Assembly: GCA_002245135.1 (NCBI GenBank)
Contig: NGBS01000031.1
Coordinates: 62,001 to 82,871 of the forward strand
DNA: 20,871 nucleotides
Origin: Proteromonas lacertae
Taxonomy: Eukaryota
Reading direction: 5' to 3'
The notes beneath the pieces were generated by a model. That model did not search any database. It had not been told where the DNA came from and saw only the letters and a program-made list of their open reading frames with translations. Made by a program: the position numbers and the translations under genes. Positions 3,605 through 20,871 of this stretch are shown here, piece after piece; position 1 is the first letter of the stretch; the number at the start of each line of letters is the position of its first letter.

Positions 3605-5027
3605 ATGAGTGTCAAATTGGTTATGGATAATGGAGGAAGTAGTATAAAATGCGGATATGCTGGTGATGAAAACCCAAAAATGTATTTCTATTGTTATACA
3701 ACCGTTAGTGATTTATTAAATGCAACGGCATATGTTACAAAAACATTATTTCATCTTGTTGCTGATGAAATTAAGACAAAAGTTAAGCAAAAGTCTCAAT
3801 TGAGATATCATTTGCCTTTTGAGAGGTATGTATAATTCTTTATGTTTTGTTAGAGGTTATTTAACTAATTTTGATGAATGTGAAATTGTTTGGAAAAGAT
3901 TATTCTCTCAAGATTTACTAAATATAGTATATACTCTGCAAACTCAAAATATTCAATAGAATTGTCAAGATACAAGTCTGTTTATGACAGAACCATTGTT
4001 TAACTTTCGTTCAATACAAGAAAAAACAGCAGAAATGGTGTTTGAAAAGTTTGGATTTTCTTCTTTTGCTTCTACTCCAGGATGTTTATTAGCAGCTTAT
4101 TATCACAACTGTCATTTTCAAAAACCGCCAAGCTGTTGTTTAATAATTGATAGTGGCTTTAGTTTCACTCACATAATACCAATTATTAATGGAAAAATAT
4201 ACAAATCAGGAATTAAAAGGTATGTTTATAACATTTTTGTTTTGCCATTATTATTTATTAAATAGAATTGATATTGGTGGTAAACTGTTGACAAATTATC
4301 TAAAAGATGTTATTAGTTATCGATATTTCAATATGCAAGATGATACTTATGAAATAAATAAAATAAAAGAAGAATTATGTTTTGTGAGTTTAGATTATAA
4401 GAAAGATTTTGAAATGAGTGGAAAATTAGGTGGAAATAACAATATTGTTAAGAATTATGTATTACCAAACTATACACAATAATGGAAGGAATATTACAAG
4501 AAAATATCTCCGAAGAAATGAAGAGAACAATAAATCGACAAGATATTCAAATATTGTCATTAAAGAATGAAAGGTTTATTGTTCCAGAATTATTATTCAC
4601 TCCAAATGATATTGGTATTAATCAAAAAGGTATTTGTGAAACGATTGTTGATAGTTTAAATACACTACCAAGTTATATTCATCCATTATTATTAGAAAAT
4701 ATCGTATTATGTGGAGGAAATACACTCTTTCCAAACTTCAAATTGAGAATTGAGAAGGATTTAAGATGTTTAATCAATGAAGATTATAATATTAAAGTTT
4801 ATCAATATGATGAGTATTATTAGTTTATATTATTATTATGTTATAGAAGTCAATATACTGCATTTAGAGGTATAGTCACTCTATGCAAGCAGGTTTAATG
4901 ATATTGTAAATGTATATTTTATATAATTATAATTATATATTTTTGTGAATAGTATGTTACAAAAGAAGAATATAGAGATAGTGGAATTAATTTAATGTAT
5001 ACAAATGAAGATGAATTTGATTTTTAA
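3605..5027 (+). CDS. ARP6: Actin-related protein 6 (SWR1 complex subunit), multi-exon, with one clear and one probable 1-nt frameshift in this sequence
   Basis: Actin-fold motifs MDNGGSSIKCG, PFERGYL, MTEPLFN, IIDSGFSFTHIIP, IDIGGKLLTNYLK, YVLPN, LKNERFIVPELLF, GGNTLFPNF, VTKEEY. Introns 3682-3708, 3826-3853, 3927-3959, 4220-4265, 4814-4846, 4912-4952. Stop TAA 5025-5027. Confidence 0.9.
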
Positions 5028-7103: not shown

Positions 7104-7155
7104 TTTGAAATAACTGAATTTTCAAAATTTCAAATTTCTTTTTTCATTACTTCAC

Positions 7156-7163
7156 AACAAACA
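7156..7163 (-). promoter_or_regulatory. TGTTTGTT motif just downstream of a stop codon, matching the Blastocystis polyadenylation-associated motif
   Basis: Minus strand reads CTA TAA AATATTG TGTTTGTT. A variant, TGTGTGTTGTTGTT, follows the next gene at ~8409-8422. Confidence 0.5.
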
Positions 7164-9444: not shown

Positions 9445-9528
9445 ATCCAAAATTATATTCGTTTCTTTATTTTGTTTTTAAAGAAATAAAGCAAATATAA
9501 ATAAAATAATTCAGTTATAAATGTTAAA

Positions 9529-11091
9529 TTATCTATTATTCTTCATATTATTCAACAATTTTATACAATCATTCTTCTTTTCTTCAGTATCTGAAAATCT
9601 CAAAGCCATTTCACAGTAAGGTATTGCTTCATCAAAATTATTCTAAATAATATATATTATGAAAGAATTAATACCATTTTGTAATAACATGTACTTAAAT
9701 AGGCATTACACATATAAATATCCACATATGACTTTGATAAAGATAATGAGGATTTATAATAGTATATTGCACTATTATAATCACTTAAATTGAAATAACA
9801 ACATCCAAGATTGTAATTTATAATAAACTTATCATCATTTTTTGTTGAAACTAGTAATGAAGATTTGAAATACTTTATACTATTATCATAATCATTCTAT
9901 TTAAATTTTAATTTAAATAATATATATAAATACAATATAAAAGTAGCAACCTCCTATATTAAATAAACAAATATGTCTATGTTTATCATCTGTAAATATT
10001 GTCAAAGCTGATTCAAAATATTCTATTGCTTTCATTGATTCTTTTATTGTGTAATAACATTTTCCTAATAATGTTAAATACTCAAATTTATCTTCGTCTA
10101 CACTAATATCAATTAAAGCAGAATTTAGATGATTGATTGCTAATTTATATTTACTAATTCTATAACAACTAATGGCTAATGTATAATTTCTTTGTACTTT
10201 TTGTTCTTTTGTTAAATCATTTTCTTTAATTGTTTCCAACAAATTGTTACATTCTTCAAACTTCCCAATTGATAATAATCTAGTTGCTGCAGTTAAAATA
10301 TTCTCAAACTTATTTTCACTTACTTCATTTACACATGATTCTATCTTTCTTAATAGTGTATTTATTCTATTTTCTATTTCATACAATGATGGTCTATCAT
10401 TTGGTTGAATATTCAACATTTCATCTATTAGTTCTTCAAAGAGTGATTCTCTTTTCCCACCATAATTTCGAGTAAAGTCTAACTCTTCTTGTGGAATAAT
10501 TATTTTCATATTAATAGTTTGTGTTTTTGATCCATCAAATGCTAATCTCAATGTATATAATTCATATAAAACACATCCCAATGCAAATATATCACTTTCT
10601 ACAGAGTAATCACTCATTATCCATATCTCTGGAGCTATATAATTCCTTGTTCCATTTATATTCTCATCTTTTTCATCAATATCAATTGCCAAACCAAAAT
10701 CACCAATTATTAACTCATCATTATCTCCAATAAATATATTATCTGGTTTTAAATCTCTATGTAATATTCCTTGCTCATGGATATATCTTAATCCATTTAT
10801 TAAATTCATTGTGTATTTGAGTATTACATCAATTGATAAATCATGCCCTTCTCTCTGTTTTTTCAATAATAAACCACGCAAATCACCTTTCTCAAAGTAT
10901 TCTGTATATATATAAAACTTCTTTTCATCAGTGTCATACTTTGATCCATAATATATCAATACATATTGATTTTTCATCTTTTCTAATACTTTTGCTTCAT
11001 TTAATACTTTATCTGCTGATTTTTTATTGACTATTAGCTCTTTTCTCGCAACATTTATCCCATTCATTTTTATTAAATGCACTTTCCCATA
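9529..11091 (-). pseudogene. NEK-like Ser/Thr protein kinase with C-terminal TPRs, 5'-truncated in the Gly-rich loop by the viral insertion
   Basis: [48 protein letters not shown] helices follow. Introns 9897-9933 and 9643-9674. Stop 9529-9531. Upstream of YGKV the frame reads [10 protein letters not shown], with no GxG and no ATG. Confidence 0.85.
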
Positions 11092-11113
11092 ACATATAAT
11101 ATAAATGCATGAA

Positions 11114-11262
11114 ATCCTCTTTTATAGAGGATCCTCTTCTAAAAGAGGATTTTTAGATCCTCTCTGAAAGAGGAAAGAGGATTTTTAGATCCTCTTTAAA
11201 AGAGGAAATATAATTTTTATAAAATCCTCTTATTAAAAAAGATGACAAATGAAAAATCCTCT
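11114..11262. repeat. Sub-terminal array of ATCCTCT/AGAGGAT inverted repeats, including a perfect 22-nt direct repeat
   Basis: ATCCTCT at 11114, 11131, 11157, 11189, 11224, 11256. AGAGGA(T) at 11126, 11144, 11169, 11176, 11201. AAAGAGGATTTTTAGATCCTCT at 11142-11163 and 11174-11195. Confidence 0.92.
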
Positions 11263-11277
11263 ATCCTAAACATATAT

Positions 11278-11393
11278 GTATAACCGTAAGAATATCACTG
11301 TATGTGGGTAAACCGTACCAGACTATTCTTAGGTGCCTTCTACAGGTAAGAATAAGCGATTTGAGTGTGAATTAGTTTTTGGTACGGTTATAC
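11278..11393. other. Nested inverted repeats able to form two mutually exclusive folds
   Basis: GTATAACCGTA (11278-88) pairs with TACGGTTATAC (11383-93). AACCGTACCA (11311-20) pairs with TGGTACGGTT (11380-89). TATTCTTA (11324-31) pairs with TAAGAATA at 11287 or 11347. Confidence 0.75.
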
Positions 11394-11522
11394 TGGAGCA
11401 AGCGGTGAATTTAAATTTCTTTATATATTTTAGTGTGTGAATAAATTTATGGGTTAAAATTTATTTTTATGTTTTTAATAGTTTGTAGTGTAGGATAGTA
11501 GAAATAAAGTGTATAAATAGAT

Positions 11523-11560
11523 AAGTAGCTACCTGTTCTACCCCGGCAGGGTAGCTACTT
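11523..11560. other. Strong GC-rich hairpin
   Basis: AAGTAGCTACC (11523-33) / GGTAGCTACTT (11550-60) is a perfect 11-bp stem, extendable with one bulge around the loop CTACCCC. Confidence 0.8.
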
Positions 11561-11587
11561 TATATAATAAGAAATGTATTTCTATGT

Positions 11588-11687
11588 AAGTAAGTAGCGT
11601 GTCCTGTGTAGCCTAGCTAGGACTTAGTGATTAAATAGTGTGGTGGCCAAGCTACAGAATGCGTTCTTACTTTTTTGTTACTTTTTT
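11588..11687 (+). ncRNA. Candidate small structured RNA (long imperfect stem followed by T6 runs)
   Basis: AAGTAAG/CTTACTT closing stem, inner wobble-rich pairing, palindrome CCTAGCTAGG (11612-21), A-box-like TAGCCTAGCTAGG, T6 at 11671-76 and 11682-87. No B-box. Confidence 0.3.
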
Positions 11688-11907
11688 CATTTATCAATTT
11701 ATTTATGGATTTATATAGTGTAGTTAAAAACATTCAAAAGAATTTAAATAGTGTCAAAAATATATATTTAAAGAATTATCTGCAATATTCTATATTTTTT
11801 ACTAAATCGAAATTCTGACGAGAAACTGTTGTTATAAACAGAAAAAAGAAACAGTTTTGATTTTCCTGACATTTTAGAAAAAACCGTTTTTTATCAAAAA
11901 TATAAAT

Positions 11908-12387
11908 ATGTGTGCTTCAGTAAACTTTGCTTCCTTTTGTTCATTTAGAAATAATGAAGATTATTTGGATAAGTGTATATGTGGAACCTGTAAGTTTTAC
12001 TTATATTTTAACCATAATATAAGTGCAGTTTTAGATAGCCCATTACCTAAGGAAGAGATAAAGTCTTATAATGAATTCTGTGCTATTTGTCATCAAAAGA
12101 TGTGGACTAAGTATAGTGATAAGAGATATTATATGATGCTTTTTGATATTAAACCATCAGTAAAACCAAGAGGATTAAATAGACATTATTTTGCAGTGTT
12201 TGATAAGTATATTGAGTGGTTAACACTACCTGAAGGAATGGGAAGTGTTCATTTGAAGAAGAATCCTATGTTGAAACATTATGTAAAGAAGAATTATATA
12301 TTTGATGATAGTGATGATGAGGAAGAAGAAGAAGTACAAGAAGAAGTTAAAGGAAATAATGATCAAACTACGATAAACATAGTCTAA
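11908..12387 (+). CDS. Viral hypothetical protein, Cys/His-rich (possible Zn-binding) with acidic tail
   Basis: 159-aa intron-less ORF with CICGTC and CAICH motifs and a DDSDDEEEEE tail. Confidence 0.7.
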   Translation: MCASVNFASFCSFRNNEDYLDKCICGTCKFYLYFNHNISAVLDSPLPKEEIKSYNEFCAICHQKMWTKYSDKRYYMMLFDIKPSVKPRGLNRHYFAVFDKYIEWLTLPEGMGSVHLKKNPMLKHYVKKNYIFDDSDDEEEEEVQEEVKGNNDQTTINIV

Positions 12388-12448
12388 ATTTTAAAACGAA
12401 TCTCTATCTTAAAATGATTTGGGACAGGGTTTAAAAATATGCGTAATT

Positions 12449-12514
12449 TAATAAAAATCACATAATATAATAAAAATATAATAAAAACATAATAAAAAAT
12501 ATAATAACCATAAT
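12449..12514. repeat. Imperfect TAATAAAAA tandem repeat between convergent viral genes
   Basis: Copies at 12449, 12468, 12479, 12490. Confidence 0.7.
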
Positions 12515-12526
12515 ATATAATTATTA

Positions 12527-13312
12527 CTAAAATGGTTCTGTAACACCTGTATCCATCCACTCTGTTATAATAACTTGAGGTGGGAATGCTTGATATGAAT
12601 ATGCATCAAGACCTTTTCGTTCTATATAAAGATTACATTTATTATTATTATTTCTTAATATAGCAAAAAAACCATCATATTTATTTAATGCAGGTTGTGA
12701 AGTTTCATTTATTACACCTTGTATAGGGAAGTATATTCCATTACTTCCATCTACAAAGTATGTTTCTAATAATTTGTTATAATATTGTTGTAATAAATCT
12801 TCTTTACCTGGTTCAGCTTTAATAACATGATGATCATCTAGATATAATATAAATCCATTACCATTATCATGATTTTTTAAAACAAGGCCATTGTATATCT
12901 TGATTCTCATAAAATGTTCAAACATTTGAATTTTTATAGGTACTTTTACAGTAGATTCATATTGATTGATCGAACCATCTTGAAATATATAGAAATTAAC
13001 TGACCAATATGTATATTCAGTATGCAATAATTTAGGTGATACAGAATTATTAACTATTGTAGTGCTACCTCCAGAACTATTATTTACAACATTATATATT
13101 TCTTGACATTTACCATATATAGTATTTGTAGTAGTTTTGATATCATTAACAGGTGTAACTATATTATTTATTTGTGTGTCAGTATGATTATTAATAGGTT
13201 TAACAATAGTATCAGGATCAGTAGGTTGTATATTTATTTTGTCAGCTATATCTTTAGCAAGCTTATCTGTATCAATATTTATATCTGAAGTATTTCGTTC
13301 CCCAATAAACAT
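12527..13312 (-). CDS. Viral hypothetical protein, possible fibre/spike
   Basis: Likely start AAAA-ATG at 13312 (MFIGERN). Heptad-like I/N/T-rich N-terminus, SSGGS linker, beta-rich aromatic C-terminal domain. Last gene of the capsid-ATPase run. Confidence 0.6.
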   Translation of the reverse strand: MFIGERNTSDINIDTDKLAKDIADKINIQPTDPDTIVKPINNHTDTQINNIVTPVNDIKTTTNTIYGKCQEIYNVVNNSSGGSTTIVNNSVSPKLLHTEYTYWSVNFYIFQDGSINQYESTVKVPIKIQMFEHFMRIKIYNGLVLKNHDNGNGFILYLDDHHVIKAEPGKEDLLQQYYNKLLETYFVDGSNGIYFPIQGVINETSQPALNKYDGFFAILRNNNNKCNLYIERKGLDAYSYQAFPPQVIITEWMDTGVTEPF

Positions 13313-13378
13313 TTTTTGTATTAATAAACAATAAAATAATAAAATTAATAAAAACATCAAGAAACTTCAGAATGATCT

Positions 13379-14119
13379 TCAATCAAAATATTGAAAGTTA
13401 GCTCTAAACACTTTTTTAACATTATCAATATATAAGAAGTTATATTGTGGCTTAGTAACAGCTAAATATAACTCTTTAAATGTTTCATATTCAGGTATCC
13501 ATATATTCAATGAGTTGTATAAGTCAAACAAATTTCTGTTACTCAATCCATAAAATGTTAAACAATAATCTACTTGTGATCTTGCTGAAGGTACTATATC
13601 AGTAATATATTGACTACTAATTATAATTTTTGATTTCAAATGTCTATTTTCTTTCATTAATACTGGTATGATATTAGCTGTTTTCAACTCTAAACTAAGA
13701 TCATCAAATATTATAATATGTTCTGCATACTCATAATTATCTTTGTTTGTATCGTCAATTGATTTCATTAACTTCTCTACTAAATTATCTCCTGAGTAAG
13801 GTTCAAATAATGAATCATTTTCATCATAGCTAATTTCATTATAATCTAATAACTCTTTAATTGAATCATATATCCTATCTTGTTTGATTGTACCTACGAA
13901 AAAATGTACATGTTGTTTTTTCTTATATTTTGGATCTATAATATGTCTTAATATATTGTATATCAAAGTTGTTTTACCACTATTCTTACGAGCCACAATA
14001 AATATATTGCAGAAAGGCTCATTAAAGTAATCATATCCCAGAATTTTCTTAGGATCAAATGACTCACCACCATCAACAGGTTCAATTTGTATATTATTTA
14101 TTTTTTCAAATTTAAACAT
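13379..14119 (-). CDS. A32-like FtsK/HerA-family genome packaging ATPase
   Basis: Walker A ARKNSGKT, Walker B IIIFDD, ENRHLK (Arg motif), IIISSQY, ARSQVDY, YNFLYID. 246 aa. Confidence 0.93.
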   Translation of the reverse strand: MFKFEKINNIQIEPVDGGESFDPKKILGYDYFNEPFCNIFIVARKNSGKTTLIYNILRHIIDPKYKKKQHVHFFVGTIKQDRIYDSIKELLDYNEISYDENDSLFEPYSGDNLVEKLMKSIDDTNKDNYEYAEHIIIFDDLSLELKTANIIPVLMKENRHLKSKIIISSQYITDIVPSARSQVDYCLTFYGLSNRNLFDLYNSLNIWIPEYETFKELYLAVTKPQYNFLYIDNVKKVFRANFQYFD

Positions 14120-14191
14120 AGTGTGTGTATATATATTATGTAGTGAGAAATCAAAAAATAAAAATAGAAGTCAATAATAAAGTATTATTAC

Positions 14192-15613
14192 TTATACTAC
14201 CTTTTCAACACCTCTTGGTCCAATAATCAATTGTTTACCAGTAATTATGTAGAACTTATGATGAATTGTATATGGATTATGATTAGCATCAAATCGTTGA
14301 TTTGAGCAATCCAAAGTAATTTTTAAATCACTTGCTAAGTCTTTACCAGCTCTTAATTTTAATTCAGTTAATCGATCAGTACTGAAATTTAGAACATCAA
14401 AAAATGAATTGGGAAATGATAATGTATTACATTTATCATATATTGTATTTTGAATAATATTTCTCATATATTCCCATGTCTGATATTTTGCAGGATATAA
14501 ATAATCAGGTGTATAAACGAAATCATTAATTTGCCATCTTATTCTATCTTGATCTTGATCAAAAGGAATAGTATCTCTATTATATGCATCATTATAATAT
14601 GCTCTGTATAATATATATTTAACATAACTTCCTATGCTACTATTAATACTGAAGTTATAGTTAAAAGTATTACTACCTGGAATTGGATCTTTAGTGATTT
14701 GAACTATATTAAAGTCAGTAAAGTCAATAGGATGATGAGTTGAATAATTAATGGTATTAGCATTACATGTTGGATCTTTATTGTAACAAATGTAAAGTCT
14801 AGGATTAATAATTTTCATTCCTACATGCTGTTGCCATGAATTAATCCAAACAGAACCATTGCTATGATGAATCCAATTCATTATAGGAGCAAATGTGAAT
14901 TGAATATAAATGACTTCACCAAAATAAATATCATTCTTCAAAGCTAATATGGTATTATAGAAATCTGCAAAATGAAATCTACAGTATAGTTTTCCATGTA
15001 ATATATCTTCTGTTGTTCCCATTTCTTCCCAATAATTCCAAACACCTCCATTTGCATTTAAAGTAGAATTAGAATTACATATAGTTGTTTCAGCTATTTT
15101 ATTATTTCTAATGCGTAAGCCATCAAATAAATATTCATAATAATGATAATCTTTTATATCATAAGGATACTGATTAGCAATTTGATGAGCTAAATCTCGA
15201 TATTCATTATAACTACTATCTAAATCACATAGAAGTGTTCCAGTTTTATTGTATACTTTGATAGTTCCAAAATTCATTGAATTCCTTAAATTTATATGAT
15301 CTAACATTTTACCAGTAGTAGAATCAGTTACAGGTGTAATAGGTAATTTCCATTGTCCTTTACCTGCATCTGCATGATCTCTTTTTTGACCTGTAGTATA
15401 ATCTAATTCAAATTCAAAGTAACTTTTAGATAGATTAACACAATTATCACCAGATATTTCAAATGTAATAGCATCACTGTTTGAATTTAAAGTATTCAAT
15501 ATAGTCTCATTTCTACTTTGGTTAGGTGTAACTAAAATATGATTGTAGACAGGTATATAAGCTGGCACAATGCTTTCATGTTTTTGTGAATTAGGTACAG
15601 CAGTGATTGACAT
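14192..15613 (-). CDS. Major capsid protein (predicted double jelly-roll)
   Basis: 473 aa, beta-rich. N-terminal ITFEISGDNCVNLSKSYFEFEL resembles the Polinton/PLV/virophage MCP signature. Also IYIQFTFAP and IINPRLYI. Lies between penton and ATPase. Confidence 0.8.
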   Translation of the reverse strand: MSITAVPNSQKHESIVPAYIPVYNHILVTPNQSRNETILNTLNSNSDAITFEISGDNCVNLSKSYFEFELDYTTGQKRDHADAGKGQWKLPITPVTDSTTGKMLDHINLRNSMNFGTIKVYNKTGTLLCDLDSSYNEYRDLAHQIANQYPYDIKDYHYYEYLFDGLRIRNNKIAETTICNSNSTLNANGGVWNYWEEMGTTEDILHGKLYCRFHFADFYNTILALKNDIYFGEVIYIQFTFAPIMNWIHHSNGSVWINSWQQHVGMKIINPRLYICYNKDPTCNANTINYSTHHPIDFTDFNIVQITKDPIPGSNTFNYNFSINSSIGSYVKYILYRAYYNDAYNRDTIPFDQDQDRIRWQINDFVYTPDYLYPAKYQTWEYMRNIIQNTIYDKCNTLSFPNSFFDVLNFSTDRLTELKLRAGKDLASDLKITLDCSNQRFDANHNPYTIHHKFYIITGKQLIIGPRGVEKVV

Positions 15614-15667
15614 ATTTTATGTTATTTTTTAAAAATCAAAAAATGCTTAAAAATAGCAAGAAATTTA

Positions 15668-16639
15668 TTAATACAAAATAATCTCAAAATAAATAGGTAA
15701 GTTATTTAAATCAATTGCATAACCATCTTGTTGAGAGACTGATATATTCATTCGTTGATATTCGTGATATTGCATCTTTTTAGTTGTCCATTCAATTTGT
15801 GGATTAGTGAATGTAGTATAATCTGCATTTATATCAGTTACAGGTATATTTGCTAAAACCATTGAATTCTCACCACTATTAACCCAGTCACATCTAATTT
15901 GTATGAATGACACCCATAGTAAAGAAGGCTGATTTGGTAACAAATTAGAATAATAATTAAAATCTTTACTGAAATATGCATCACTTAAATGATTTGCATG
16001 ATAAATTGATATACTTTTATTTATTTCATCTAAACCAAATAACTTATATGCTAAGTTAGGGAATTCCATACTAAAATCTGTAAAGTAATATTTTCCGAAA
16101 TGAGTAATATAATTAAATTGTAACTTTAATCTATTTTCTGAAGTTTTTTCAAATTGAAGTACATCTGTTTGATCATCTACTTTATGAAATGGAAATCTAT
16201 TTGCAAAATCTTCATCAGGTAATGGTACCACTCCATTATCAAATGCATAAAAAGTAAAACTTAAGAGATTTCTAGCAAAATAATCTAATAATTCTTTTCC
16301 TGTATATTTTCTTTGAGGTATTTTAATATCAATAGTTTTATTATAAGGTCCATTTTGGTTTTCAGGGTATGCCCATTTTATTGGATTTGTTTCATCTGGA
16401 TTAATGCAGCTATAATAAGTAAAATTAAAGAGTATATGATCATTTACTTCATCTTGTATTGTATAGAAGTTATTTGGAATAACTGCAGTAATTAAACTCA
16501 TATATTGATATTTTTCAGTTATAGTTGGAGTATTAATACATCTTGTCCATCTATTTGAAAATTTTGAATCATAGTCTGATGTAGTTAAGAACAATGATCT
16601 TCTATTATTTATAACATTATTACTATCTTTAGGTTGCAT
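15668..16639 (-). CDS. Minor capsid protein (penton, predicted single jelly-roll)
   Basis: Typical pattern LFLTTSD, MSLITAVIPNNFYTI, IKIPQRKYT, KLFGL, IQIRCDWV, VLANIPV, ISVSQQDGYAIDLNNLPIYFEIILY at the C-terminus. Confidence 0.85.
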   Translation of the reverse strand: MQPKDSNNVINNRRSLFLTTSDYDSKFSNRWTRCINTPTITEKYQYMSLITAVIPNNFYTIQDEVNDHILFNFTYYSCINPDETNPIKWAYPENQNGPYNKTIDIKIPQRKYTGKELLDYFARNLLSFTFYAFDNGVVPLPDEDFANRFPFHKVDDQTDVLQFEKTSENRLKLQFNYITHFGKYYFTDFSMEFPNLAYKLFGLDEINKSISIYHANHLSDAYFSKDFNYYSNLLPNQPSLLWVSFIQIRCDWVNSGENSMVLANIPVTDINADYTTFTNPQIEWTTKKMQYHEYQRMNISVSQQDGYAIDLNNLPIYFEIILY

Positions 16640-16718
16640 TATGATTTATAATTGTTGAGAAATATTAAAATATAATTTTATTTGAATTATTCTTTAATTT
16701 ATATATCGTTATATATAT

Positions 16719-19397
16719 ATGCAACCACAACCACAAGTTAACAATTCAAATGATGAAGAAGATGAACCAACAGATGATGATTATGAATATGAAGAAGATG
16801 AAGATAATGTACCTATTGATATGAACAGAATAAGACATAGAAGAAGACATAGAAGGAATCAAGTCATACCATTTCAAGATATAAGCGAAGATGATTTGAA
16901 TAACTATGTGAATCAAGAAGTGAAAAGATTTAACAAAGCATTGATTATGCAATATAGACTAATTCCTATAGGATGGCCAAATCATGAATTTAATAGAATA
17001 TATAATTTATATGATGAACATATGAAAATGTTTAATTGGTGTAAGAATTTATTTGTAACAGGTCCTTTTGCACATGGCAAACCATTAGAAGCTTATAATC
17101 CAAAATTAGCAGGAAATGAAAATTCTGCTAATGCAAGAGAATGTGGAATATTTAAAACTCGTATAGCAGATGGTATTGATAAATTGTGTATGGCATCTGA
17201 TTTTATATTACAAAGAAATCCATTTGTTGTTTTACACCCAAAAGAGAGAATAGGTGTTACACAACTAGAAAATAGAAGAATTAAAAAAACTCATTATGAA
17301 ATTGATGAAAGACATCCAGAACCAGAAAATGATTTTAACATAATGAATAATGAACATTATAATAGTGCAGCTGAAATAAGAGCGGAAAATGTTATGCAAA
17401 ATAGACATGATAATATGGTAAGAGGAGTATTAGTAAATGCAGACAATGGAAGTAATGATAATAACAATAATAACAACAATGGAAATAATAACAATGATAA
17501 TAATGAAAATAATAACAATGCAAATTATGATATAATTAGCTTTTGCGATTCTCTGAAAGATAAGATAAAGTTCTACATAGGTCGTTTAATGAGAACTAAA
17601 TTTTGGTATTTAACAAATCAAAAAGAAGAAACAGCTTATTCAATTGCATTAATCATATACAACTGTGTAACTGATTTGTATATATTAGCTTTATATTACA
17701 TACCAATATTAAAAGATAAGTTAAGTGGTAATTATCAAAATGATAATGAATATACTTTACCATATCATCCTGATAGAAGAAATTTTATGGGATTACCAGA
17801 TGGTGATAATAGAACAGGATATAGATATAACTATTTAGCAACTATACAAAAAATATTAACAGAAGCGCATGTACCACAAGGTCAAATCAATACAAATATA
17901 TTTGCTAATCCTATAACTTTTAGAATGAATAGAGCTTTAGATACGCAACTTAACCGTCAAATTAAACATAGAAGATCAGTTCCAGCTTATGTTGGAATGA
18001 ATGTTGCAGATCATAGAAATTGGAGATATGTTGCACCAGCTAATTATCCTCCTGCTCATCCATCAATTACTGCAGATTTGATTGATAGAAATGTCAATGC
18101 ATTTTATAATGCATCACCTGCAAATAGTGATAGTGAAGATAATGATAATAATCCATCAAGTAGTGATACTGAAGAAGATTCAGACACTTATGATCTTGGT
18201 GATATGAGTAATCAAATACCACCTCCTCCTTTGCCACCAAGACCTATGCCAGCAAGAACTGATCAACAACAACCACCTCCACCTCCTCCTGTATCAAATG
18301 TATCTAGATCTAATGTAATTAGTTTAGGTAATCAATTTAATCCTCATCATCTTATACCATCTGATAGATTTTCATTTTTAGTATCAGATGATTTGCTTAA
18401 TGCTATACCAAATCCAAATAGAGACTTTAATAAATCTCATAGATTTTTAGCTAATAGAGAAAATGGTGCAAAAATAGGTGTAACTAGGATAATACAAGAG
18501 TTTTATACACAATTGTTAACAAATAATGGTAAAATCTATTCAATTGATGCATTTATACATAACCATAATCCACCTTGTACAATTGTAGATGAAAATTCAA
18601 GCAAGAGTTATATGTTCTTTACTGATTGGGTTAGAGAAGAAAACATCAATTTACCTTTATTACCTAGATCTAAATATAATGCAACTGAAGTAAATGATAT
18701 ACCTCAAAATTACAGTAGTATCAATATGATGTTCTATGGATATGATTACAATAGAAATATATATTCATATACTGGTTTATTAGAATATTGGTTAAAGAAT
18801 CATAGAGGAACGGCATTTAATGAAAGACAAGCTAAGCAGGAAATATACATATATAATCCATGTATCAATATTCTATCAGATGATGAAGAGGAAAATAAAA
18901 ACATAAAAGTATTAATAGGTATGGATTATGATAAAAATTGGCCTAACGATAAAAAAATCAAATGTAAACAAATCAAAGTAATAGTATCTCAAGAAAGTGA
19001 TAGAGCATGGTATGTAATAAGTGATCCAATGTTTGATTATATGTCATGCGATATACCAGGTGATGGAATTCACAAATTCTATAACTATCCATTCTTTGTT
19101 AAGATAGGAGATACAGTAGAATTGATAGTACCAGTATCTTTGAAAGATAATATTTATGTATTAAAAGATGCTAGATTAGATGATAAAGATGAAAATAATT
19201 ATTTAAAAATTGATGATTATATGAGAAATGCAAATCGAGATAGTATTAATCAAAGAGCTATTGATGATAGAGAAACAGCTAAGCGTAGAATACATGGTTT
19301 AGGTAAAAAGCGTAGAAGAAAGACACAATCATTAGTAAAATTGTATACCAAATTGTTTACACACAATAATAAAAGAAAAAGAATAAAAATTATATAG
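16719..19397 (+). CDS. Large viral hypothetical protein (892 aa) with acidic, Asn-rich and Pro-rich segments and basic clusters near both ends
   Basis: Uninterrupted 2.7-kb ORF. No recognisable enzyme motif. Its 3' end overlaps the convergent protease gene by 8 nt (19390-19397). Confidence 0.85.
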   Translation: MQPQPQVNNSNDEEDEPTDDDYEYEEDEDNVPIDMNRIRHRRRHRRNQVIPFQDISEDDLNNYVNQEVKRFNKALIMQYRLIPIGWPNHEFNRIYNLYDEHMKMFNWCKNLFVTGPFAHGKPLEAYNPKLAGNENSANARECGIFKTRIADGIDKLCMASDFILQRNPFVVLHPKERIGVTQLENRRIKKTHYEIDERHPEPENDFNIMNNEHYNSAAEIRAENVMQNRHDNMVRGVLVNADNGSNDNNNNNNNGNNNNDNNENNNNANYDIISFCDSLKDKIKFYIGRLMRTKFWYLTNQKEETAYSIALIIYNCVTDLYILALYYIPILKDKLSGNYQNDNEYTLPYHPDRRNFMGLPDGDNRTGYRYNYLATIQKILTEAHVPQGQINTNIFANPITFRMNRALDTQLNRQIKHRRSVPAYVGMNVADHRNWRYVAPANYPPAHPSITADLIDRNVNAFYNASPANSDSEDNDNNPSSSDTEEDSDTYDLGDMSNQIPPPPLPPRPMPARTDQQQPPPPPPVSNVSRSNVISLGNQFNPHHLIPSDRFSFLVSDDLLNAIPNPNRDFNKSHRFLANRENGAKIGVTRIIQEFYTQLLTNNGKIYSIDAFIHNHNPPCTIVDENSSKSYMFFTDWVREENINLPLLPRSKYNATEVNDIPQNYSSINMMFYGYDYNRNIYSYTGLLEYWLKNHRGTAFNERQAKQEIYIYNPCINILSDDEEENKNIKVLIGMDYDKNWPNDKKIKCKQIKVIVSQESDRAWYVISDPMFDYMSCDIPGDGIHKFYNYPFFVKIGDTVELIVPVSLKDNIYVLKDARLDDKDENNYLKIDDYMRNANRDSINQRAIDDRETAKRRIHGLGKKRRRKTQSLVKLYTKLFTHNNKRKRIKII

Positions 19398-19950
19398 TTT
19401 TAAATTTTGTTTCTAACATTTTTGCTCTTTTTTCTCCTTTTAATGAATTAAAATTTGTTGCTTGCACAAACGATTTGTTATTTACTATGATATCAACTAA
19501 AAACAAAATTGCATGATAACCGCATCTTACACTATCAACTCTTTGATTTTTCACTCTGTTTATTTTAATCTTATATTCATCATTAGGATATTTTTTTAAT
19601 TTTGTTAAATCTTTATAAAACTTTGTTATTTGTTTTGGTTTATCTCCAAAACTATCATAGTACATTATCCTCCTAGTATTATTGTTAACACATAAACTAA
19701 CCCAATGACCTATTTTACTTACAGGATCTTTAGTTGTATTAGTACAAAGTATTACACACCAAACATCATCATTTTTATATAGCTGACCTATTTTGCTAAG
19801 TTCATCCCATAGTATAACACCTTTAAAATATTTTAGTAGTCTAGGAAACATTTTTTTAATGATCTTTTCAATATCAAAATTTGAGAGTGCATCTTCTTTA
19901 TGTAAATCACCTGTACCTATATAGTCATTTGTGATATATCTTTTAAACAT
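19390..19950 (-). CDS. Adenain/Ulp1-like (clan CE) cysteine protease, virion maturation protease
   Basis: Catalytic order His (GHWVSL), Asp (YYDSFG), Gln (KNQ), Cys (RCGYHAILF). Also FKGV and CVILCTNT. 186 aa. Confidence 0.92.
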   Translation of the reverse strand: MFKRYITNDYIGTGDLHKEDALSNFDIEKIIKKMFPRLLKYFKGVILWDELSKIGQLYKNDDVWCVILCTNTTKDPVSKIGHWVSLCVNNNTRRIMYYDSFGDKPKQITKFYKDLTKLKKYPNDEYKIKINRVKNQRVDSVRCGYHAILFLVDIIVNNKSFVQATNFNSLKGEKRAKMLETKFKTI

Positions 19951-20044
19951 TATATAATTAATAACTATAAGAATTTATTGAATATCAATTCATTTGATAA
20001 ATTCTTAACGTTTTTAATATATATATATTTATGTTATTTAATTA

Positions 20045-20821
20045 ATGGGTAAGTTTAAAGATTGGTTAAAAAAATCTAAAATTCTATCTAGCGCAGCTAG
20101 TTTAATACCTTTTGCTGGACCAGCTATTAGTAACCAGTATAGAGAATATGGGGATATGGTAAGAGAAGACGTAGAGGTAGGGTTGCAAGACATAGAGTTA
20201 CTAGAATGTCACAATTTACACCTGATGGTAGATTCTTAGGTGATACTTCATCTATGACTGGTGGTGGAACTGTTAAGTTTAGGACAAAATCTGGTAAAGT
20301 TGTTTCATTTCATACTAGAAAACGGAAGGGAGCTGGTTTAGGTAGTTTGTTTAAGAAAGGATGGAATAAAATAAGAAAAATAGCTACAAAAGACAATATT
20401 ACAAGAGGTATTCAGAAAGCTAAAGAGATAAATAACACTTTAAAAGATAAGAAATATATTAGTGATATATCAGGTAAAGTAGGTACTGTAGCTAATACTC
20501 TTGGTTTAAGTAAAATTGGTGATATAGCAATAAGATAAGTTCCACTGCTAGTAATTATGGTTATGGAAAACGTAGAAGAAGACATAGGGGAGGTAAAAGA
20601 TTTGGACAAAATGGTGGACTTAGATTACAATGAATGGTGGTAGTAAAATACGTAGTATAGCTATTACTAAACCTCCTAGCAATAGGCCTATTTTAAATGG
20701 ATTAGCTAAACCTTGTGGATTTAACCATAGAGGTTTATACAATCCACAAAACAGTTTACAAAAGCTTTTTAGCTTACAAGTTAACAACATAAACTTTGTT
20801 ATTGATTTTATTATTCATTGA
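20045..20821 (+). CDS. Basic core/minor virion protein precursor, split here by three apparent 1-nt deletions
   Basis: The three short ORFs join into one ~260-aa Lys/Arg/Gly-rich protein if one base is restored at ~20150-53 (G run), ~20529-30 and ~20629-30 (A runs). This reveals two GYGKRRRR motifs plus MTGGG and MNGGS. Confidence 0.65.
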
Positions 20822-20871
20822 TAATTCTTATTGTTTTTTTATATATTTAATAATAACATAATGTATAACAA

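Follow-up and report, generated by a model that had tools for sequence, protein, structure and literature searches.

What occupies the right half of a 20,871-nucleotide stretch of contig NGBS01000031.1 (positions 62,001 to 82,871, hereafter the window), in which packed eukaryotic genes end near position 11094 and are followed by 814 nucleotides without a long open reading frame (ORF) and then by viral ORFs? Our analysis indicates that 11094-20871 very probably comes from a Polinton-type DNA virus, of which it represents the left portion with the capsid-building genes. The virus is likely integrated within exon 1 of a host kinase gene, the host being a gut stramenopile with low guanine plus cytosine (GC) content, likely Proteromonas, and its capsid cluster is likely the one counted 285 times in Proteromonas lacertae. 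It is likely to be the end of a real endogenous virus of this type, from a group that is known and has likely been catalogued before. All coordinates are those of the window, and what we say of published work refers to the parts of each source that were available.

The capsid-building genes

Four genes form the morphogenesis module of the element:

14192..15613, minus strand: double jelly-roll major capsid protein (MCP), 473 amino acids, from an AlphaFold model and Foldseek
13379..14119, minus strand: A32/FtsK-HerA genome-packaging ATPase, 246 amino acids, from Pox_A32 and STIV2 matches and motifs
15668..16639, minus strand: likely penton (minor capsid protein), 323 amino acids, from a weak model, structure searches and position
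19390..19950, minus strand: maturation cysteine protease of the adenain/Ulp1 clan, 186 amino acids, from Pfam and catalytic residues

The MCP has no match in Pfam (E<=0.1), PHROG or the PDB sequences, and a profile of the MCP likewise found nothing useful among the PDB sequences. Its AlphaFold model, built from 8 sequences, has a predicted template modelling score of 0.65 and a predicted local distance difference test (pLDDT) score of 61. When the model was compared with the PDB by Foldseek, the mavirus MCP was the best match (E 5e-11, 9% identity), and all 25 of the listed rows were double jelly-roll capsid or scaffold proteins. The model also matches viral MCPs in BFVD. On this modelled fold the protein is a double jelly-roll MCP, as a preliminary description of the sequence had anticipated. 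The ATPase matches Pox_A32 just below the cut-off (E 9e-5, 22.5 bits against 22.8) and the STIV2 packaging NTPase B204 (E 0.003), and its Walker A, Walker B and arginine-finger motifs are all present; a tblastn search against phage records returned nothing. The protease matches Peptidase_C48 (E 5e-7) and C5 (E 3e-5), both over the cut-off, and retains His82, Asp99, Gln136 and Cys143. With the double jelly-roll MCP and the intact motifs of both enzymes, the Polinton-type character that the same description had given to the module is confirmed.

The case of the 323-amino-acid protein is less clear, and the jelly-roll expected for it was recovered only in part. Confidence in its model is confined to the middle part, and the jelly-roll base is poorly modelled. 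The top Foldseek row is an adenovirus penton-base derivative, with a weak score (E 0.025, and none at E<=0.001). The five top rows of the VIA search, all viral capsid entries including the adenovirus and mavirus pentons, reach Z 5.0-6.6 and the next row 3.8, where a Z below 8 may reflect merely a common arrangement. The best structure rows are thus capsid or penton entries, the gene adjoins that of the MCP, and its homologues (6, at 35-58%) share contig sizes with the MCP homologues. For these reasons we consider the protein a likely penton.

All four ORFs are uninterrupted and free of introns, next to host genes with GT-AG introns, which agrees with what had been reported for them. More widely, the seven ORFs of the element are free of stops over 7,686 nucleotides in total, ORFs cover 95% of 11908-20821, and a splice search called no introns in three element spans. 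The term intact therefore suits these four genes; it does not suit the coding region 20045-20821, which is split by at least three frame switches.

Seven MCP homologues were found at 39-75%, and a profile search across 1.84 billion proteins yielded 284 hits, 12 of them with E<=1e-30. We built a quick, unrooted tree of 57 rows, including 45 distant hits picked by rank and length with fragments excluded and no named reference MCPs. A long branch (Shimodaira-Hasegawa-like approximate likelihood ratio test 100) separates the window MCP and 11 close rows from the 45 distant rows, which places the protein in no named group. The Atlas clusters found for the MCP are unnamed or capsid-leaning. The close clusters of the MCP, the penton candidate and an 892-amino-acid protein described below were, where looked up, all in Logan assemblies only, and scans of IMG/VR and the JGI metagenomes confirmed no related locus. 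Homologues of the MCP and of the penton candidate occur on contigs of equal size (10216, 7277, 4941; 9425, 5898, 5312, 4850, 3110), so that the two genes are likely linked on the same contigs. The distant MCP relatives form a large Pfam-dark family of 420-510 amino acids (E 1e-17 and weaker), and one of them comes from a Lithocolla globosa transcriptome.

The interrupted kinase and the left end

On the left the element abuts a truncated host gene, and its own end carries palindromes:

9453..11094, minus strand: host NEK/PLK-like kinase with TPR tail and three introns, a non-viral flank whose 5' end is cut in the glycine-rich loop
11091..11095, no strand: host-virus junction, where the kinase codons end; the left end of the element lies within this interval (sequence reading)
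11112..11262, no strand: terminal block of nested palindromes and repeats, with 9 AGAGGAT copies and a 32-nucleotide direct repeat
11523..11562, no strand: second hairpin, in the 814-nucleotide non-coding left end, from a DNA fold without shuffle control

The kinase matches Pfam Pkinase (E 4e-46), but the match begins at profile position 12 of 263, and an alignment with NEK1 starts at the same residue. Only the last glycine of the glycine loop is retained, the codons reading C-Y-G-K-V-H up to 11094; above this position the reading frame contains neither a glycine codon nor a GxG. An intron was considered as the cause of the break and rejected: no splice acceptor restores GxG, and the nearest AG adds seven or eight unrelated residues. 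The truncated match, the absence of glycine codons above 11094 and the lack of a rescuing acceptor together put the break at 11091-11095. This supports both the insertion into a host kinase gene and the junction at about 11093 that had been proposed before.

The junction had also been called sharp, which is true of the gene structure and not of the composition. We searched for a GC step at the junction and found none (27.0% on the left, 26.8% on the right). The CpG ratio is 0.26 on the left and 0.29 on the right, the dinucleotide ratios are similar, and the codon usage of the host half and of the element correlates at 0.94. Since composition and codon use match those of the host, there is no sign of a recent arrival. 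The suggestion of a recent and possibly inducible provirus finds no support here, nor in a second copy, which is absent from the window.

The terminal block starts within 20 nucleotides of the break. It contains 9 of the 13 AGAGGAT matches in the window, where 2.5 would be expected and 13 were reached in none of 100 shuffles, and as DNA it folds into hairpins with a z of -5.76 (0 of 200 shuffles). This block is likely either an origin or the outer end of a terminal inverted repeat. No further copy of 11094-11900 occurs in the window, in which only the left end of the element is present. Polintons have an AG end, and protein-primed replicons have short terminal repeats. Unlike an AG end, the element apparently opens at 11095-11104 with a short direct repeat, TATAA twice. 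Palindromes at the tip are described for Halocafeteria virophages and one subtype of Polinton-like viruses (PLVs), where they are associated with replicases other than pPolB and hairpin priming is proposed (bioRxiv 10.64898/2026.07.28.741278).

Accessory genes and the host sequence

Four further coding regions lie in the element:

12527..13357, minus strand: ORF of 276 amino acids, likely start 13312 (261 amino acids), with a predicted trimeric shaft and C-terminal head, from a three-copy fold
16719..19397, plus strand: conserved protein of 892 amino acids and no known family, with a C-terminal G-x-G and basic tail, from a homologue cluster and the tail motif
20045..20821, plus strand: core-protein-like gene rich in Arg, Lys and Gly, with an amphipathic helix, in four pieces with frame switches near 20135-20150, 20529 and 20625
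11908..12387, plus strand: ORF of 159 amino acids with paired CxxC motifs and an acidic tail, from sequence

The 261-amino-acid protein has no Pfam or PDB sequence match. Folded in three copies it scores 0.39, against 0.00 for the best of 3 controls, with contacts at residues 18-77, a pLDDT of 40-44 and agreement between runs in at least 41% of contacts. For comparison, 21 of 30 solved self-pairs attained the mark set for this score, and none of 23 single chains did (17 of 29 and 0 of 30 in eukaryotes). The predicted trimer would fit a fibre shaft, and the protein is likely a fibre or spike.

The 892-amino-acid protein has no match in Pfam, the PDB or Atlas, and a search with its family against the PDB sequences gave nothing useful. 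It has a single homologue cluster of 20 members at 45% identity. All 14 full-length homologues fetched carry the G-x-G-basic tail, and none of the 221 fetched proteins from outside the family has it. This tail suggests that the protein is likely a virion cargo processed by the protease. All 14 full-length homologues are listed on contigs of 2.86-2.97 kb, barely exceeding the gene; they may stem from transcripts, from a small replicon of their own, or from a cassette that is only optionally present between repeated flanks.

The core-like gene appears to be coding, as its third-position GC is 0.10-0.17 in every piece, like that of the other genes. Its middle pieces consist of 26-29% lysine and arginine, and its helix ranks 5th of 4,090 14-residue windows by hydrophobic moment (19 reading frames scored). 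A search with a core piece against the PDB sequences gave nothing useful. The G-x-G-basic motif is found twice in 20045-20821, once in the 892-amino-acid ORF and never in the six frames of the host half. We infer a protease-matured core and entry kit, although the cleavage sites and the membrane activity are read from short motifs and the adenain cleavage consensus. Introns as the cause of the breaks were rejected by inspection of sequence and splicing. Similar breaks occur in two host genes, so the frame switches may be assembly errors; the density of breaks is higher here than in the host half, and decay has for that reason still to be reckoned with.

The 159-amino-acid ORF has only a sub-threshold zinc-finger match in Pfam (E 0.035) and is likely a small regulator. 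It resembles the adintovirus 'Oncoid' class in its paired CxxC and acidic S-D-D-E tail and differs from it in having no LxCxE motif. Rfam gave no match in the window.

If these predictions are right, an icosahedral shell would be formed by the MCP together with the likely penton and would bear the predicted trimeric fibre, which would mediate attachment, and the ATPase would pump the genome in. Cleavage by the protease at G-x-G sites in the basic core precursor and the 892-amino-acid protein would free DNA-condensing peptides and the amphipathic helix, and during entry the helix might breach a membrane in the manner of adenoviruses and adintoviruses. Assembly would be nuclear. The terminal hairpins might prime replication or bind the integrase, and the replication and integration genes would lie beyond 20871, including the element-encoded integrase responsible for integration.

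Left of about 11094, the host genes comprise an LRR, a TPR-IQ, an ARP6, an ARM/U-box and the kinase-TPR gene, recognised by Pfam or sequence matches, and one which we take to be MECR. Their introns are GT-AG and of 26-46 nucleotides, 13 of them found by a splice search over five host gene spans, which yielded a model for all but one span. Their stops are canonical and encoded in the DNA. In ARP6 there is a one-base frame break at 4479-4482, whose flanking pieces map to residues 173-242 and 264-349 of human ARP6 and leave no room for an intron; the ARM/U-box gene has a similar one-base break at about 6226. Both are likely assembly indels, and gene models on this sequence will be split.

The GC content of the host half is 27.0%, compared with 27.0% in P. 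lacertae, 21.5-23.1% in tortoise Blastocystis and 39-55% in other Blastocystis, and two intergenic gaps measure 63 and 127 nucleotides, compared with median intergenic lengths of 645-719 in tortoise Blastocystis (PMC12129017). From GC content, stops, intergenic spacing and the capsid family we conclude that Proteromonas or a near relative of it is the likely host. An anaerobic gut stramenopile had been proposed before, correctly as it seems, but its likeness to Blastocystis is not upheld, because GC content, short gaps and canonical stops fit Proteromonas better. Two points qualify this assignment. It is drawn from composition and the capsid family and not from a host gene tree, and an exact TGTTTGTT, which we take to be the downstream element of human Blastocystis, follows the MECR stop at 7149-7156 on the minus strand. 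This gene keeps its own stop, and the window holds just two exact copies.

Alternative explanations and known systems

Several observations weigh against our main reading. The window contains no gene for a polymerase, helicase, integrase or recombinase, and neither a right-hand repeat nor a target-site duplication; the composition and codon use of the element equal those of the host, the core-like gene is broken, the proposed cleavage sites and membrane activity depend on short motifs and the adenain consensus, and the likely penton is weakly modelled. A relic that is decaying or non-autonomous, that is, a real insertion which makes no virions any more and was spread by the enzymes of other copies, would account for the lack of replication and integration genes, for the missing compositional contrast and for at least three frame switches within about 780 nucleotides. 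Such a relic would hardly be expected to keep seven ORFs open and its catalytic motifs intact, the breaks in ARP6 and the ARM/U-box gene imply that the sequence likely holds indel errors, and indel artefacts have been reported for multi-copy endogenous viral elements (PMC10120064); we regard decay as possible, but on the unlikely side. An assembly chimera, in which the end of a free or extrachromosomal virus was joined to a host contig, would fit the indel errors, the absence of the rest of the kinase from the window and the fact that the window apparently ends inside the element. It is very improbable, given that GC, CpG depletion and codon use are those of the host, that members of the likely cluster lie deep in long contigs, at 108-166 kb (PMC10120064), and that the break coincides with a palindromic end like those of the Halocafeteria elements (bioRxiv 10.64898/2026.07.28.741278).

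The remaining alternative concerns the way of life of the element, which could be a helper-dependent, virophage-like provirus, expressed only on giant virus infection and acting as an antiviral defence. The top solved-structure matches of the MCP are indeed those of mavirus and Sputnik, the four-gene module equals the virophage set (PMC9952930), and such a role is discussed for endogenous viral elements of protists (PMC10120064). However, the identity to these two MCPs is only 9-13%, iridovirus and PBCV-1 capsids score nearly equally, and no Pfam virophage MCP family is matched. The P. lacertae count stands outside the virophage columns of Table S4 (PMC10120064), and the available passages of an egovirus preprint, which do not cover Proteromonas, report no gene flux to Blastocystis (bioRxiv 10.1101/2024.03.23.586382). 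We therefore think a virophage-like provirus improbable and retain the Polinton-type virus as our preferred reading. Whether this copy can still produce virions is about evenly balanced. More speculative, and in our view doubtful, is the idea of a virus lineage that is still active in opalinate protists of the gut and makes up about one tenth of the Proteromonas genome, with an adenovirus-like entry kit (a fibre, a protease-released amphipathic core peptide and a large tagged cargo of no known family) and hairpin-end replication, in which case the relatives in public sequencing runs would be the same group in other animal guts.

Among known systems, the Polinton, PLV and virophage supergroup (double jelly-roll preplasmiviruses) is the widest frame, and the element has both its double jelly-roll MCP and its A32/FtsK-HerA ATPase. 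With Polintons/Mavericks and adintoviruses it shares the MCP, ATPase and adenain-like protease and, likely, the penton (PMC10748475, PMC8502044). Of the features by which Polintons/Mavericks were judged here, the adenovirus-like protease is present; the others, pPolB, an rve integrase, paired terminal inverted repeats of 100-1500 bp and a 5-8 bp target-site duplication, do not occur in the window with its single left end. Table S4 does not place the P. lacertae MCP count in its Maverick-Polinton-Adintovirus columns (PMC10120064). By analogy only, the adintovirus PLA2X/GasderminX proteins, with their basic C-terminal tag, and a cupiennin-like amphipathic gene parallel the 892-amino-acid protein and the core-like gene (PMC8502044), but the 892-amino-acid protein has no PLA2 or gasdermin match. 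These protease-tagged cargo and core proteins offer testable leads on virion maturation and cell entry in Polinton-type viruses.

As a class, PLVs endogenous to protists are common and have been well documented. In the sense of Yutin et al. 2015 (PMC4642659) PLVs have in common with the element the core of MCP, minor capsid protein (here the likely penton) and ATPase, and are defined as lacking the protease, which the element has, so that the four-gene set cannot define PLVs as had been stated. The Halocafeteria PLVs, likewise integrated in a Bigyra host and, in one subtype, with palindromes at the tip, also lack it (bioRxiv 10.64898/2026.07.28.741278). Gosseviruses do have a protease, and later usage of the name PLV admits members bearing one (PMC10120064). 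Another mid-size double jelly-roll virus is the Blastocystis MELD virus, which has divergent virion proteins and likewise belongs to a gut-dwelling opalinate (Starrett et al. 2021, PMC8502044); the sole 'MELD virus sp.' structure match to our MCP, in BFVD, has 12% identity.

Closest is the capsid cluster of P. lacertae itself, for which Bellas et al. 2023 (PMC10120064, Tables S1, S3 and S4) list 285 MCPs and no count in any of 10 Blastocystis rows. By our own reading of the table row, 285 copies at 20 kb each would be about 11% of the P. lacertae genome. Proteromonas is the comparison genome for Blastocystis evolution, and this difference bears on the gap in genome size (52 against 13-33 Mb). 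The printed cluster representative and the window MCP family have several motifs of 6-13 residues in common from end to end, for example the pairs NCINLSKSY and NCVNLSKSY, INSSIGPY and INSSIGSY, and WMINDF and WQINDF. The two also agree in size (members of 304-509 amino acids), in a double jelly-roll found by the same fold-and-search route and in host GC. The capsid family is likely the published one, with the reservation that the motifs were compared by eye and not in a computed alignment, for a cluster delimited at 25% identity over 30% of the length, and the lineage is then less poorly described than had been assumed. Proteromonas is never named in the available main text of PMC10120064, and our literature search for Proteromonas with Polinton, Maverick or major capsid, which did not extend to the P. 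lacertae genome paper, turned up only the Halocafeteria preprint, where the P. lacertae elements are named PLVs (bioRxiv 10.64898/2026.07.28.741278). PMC10120064 gives MCP counts and five automatic gene maps, and the text and tables covered do not include the fibre, the core precursor, the 892-amino-acid protein or the terminal palindromes. The element described here gives gene-level anatomy to a likely member of a capsid cluster previously known mostly as a count in a supplement, and shows one copy disrupting a host kinase.

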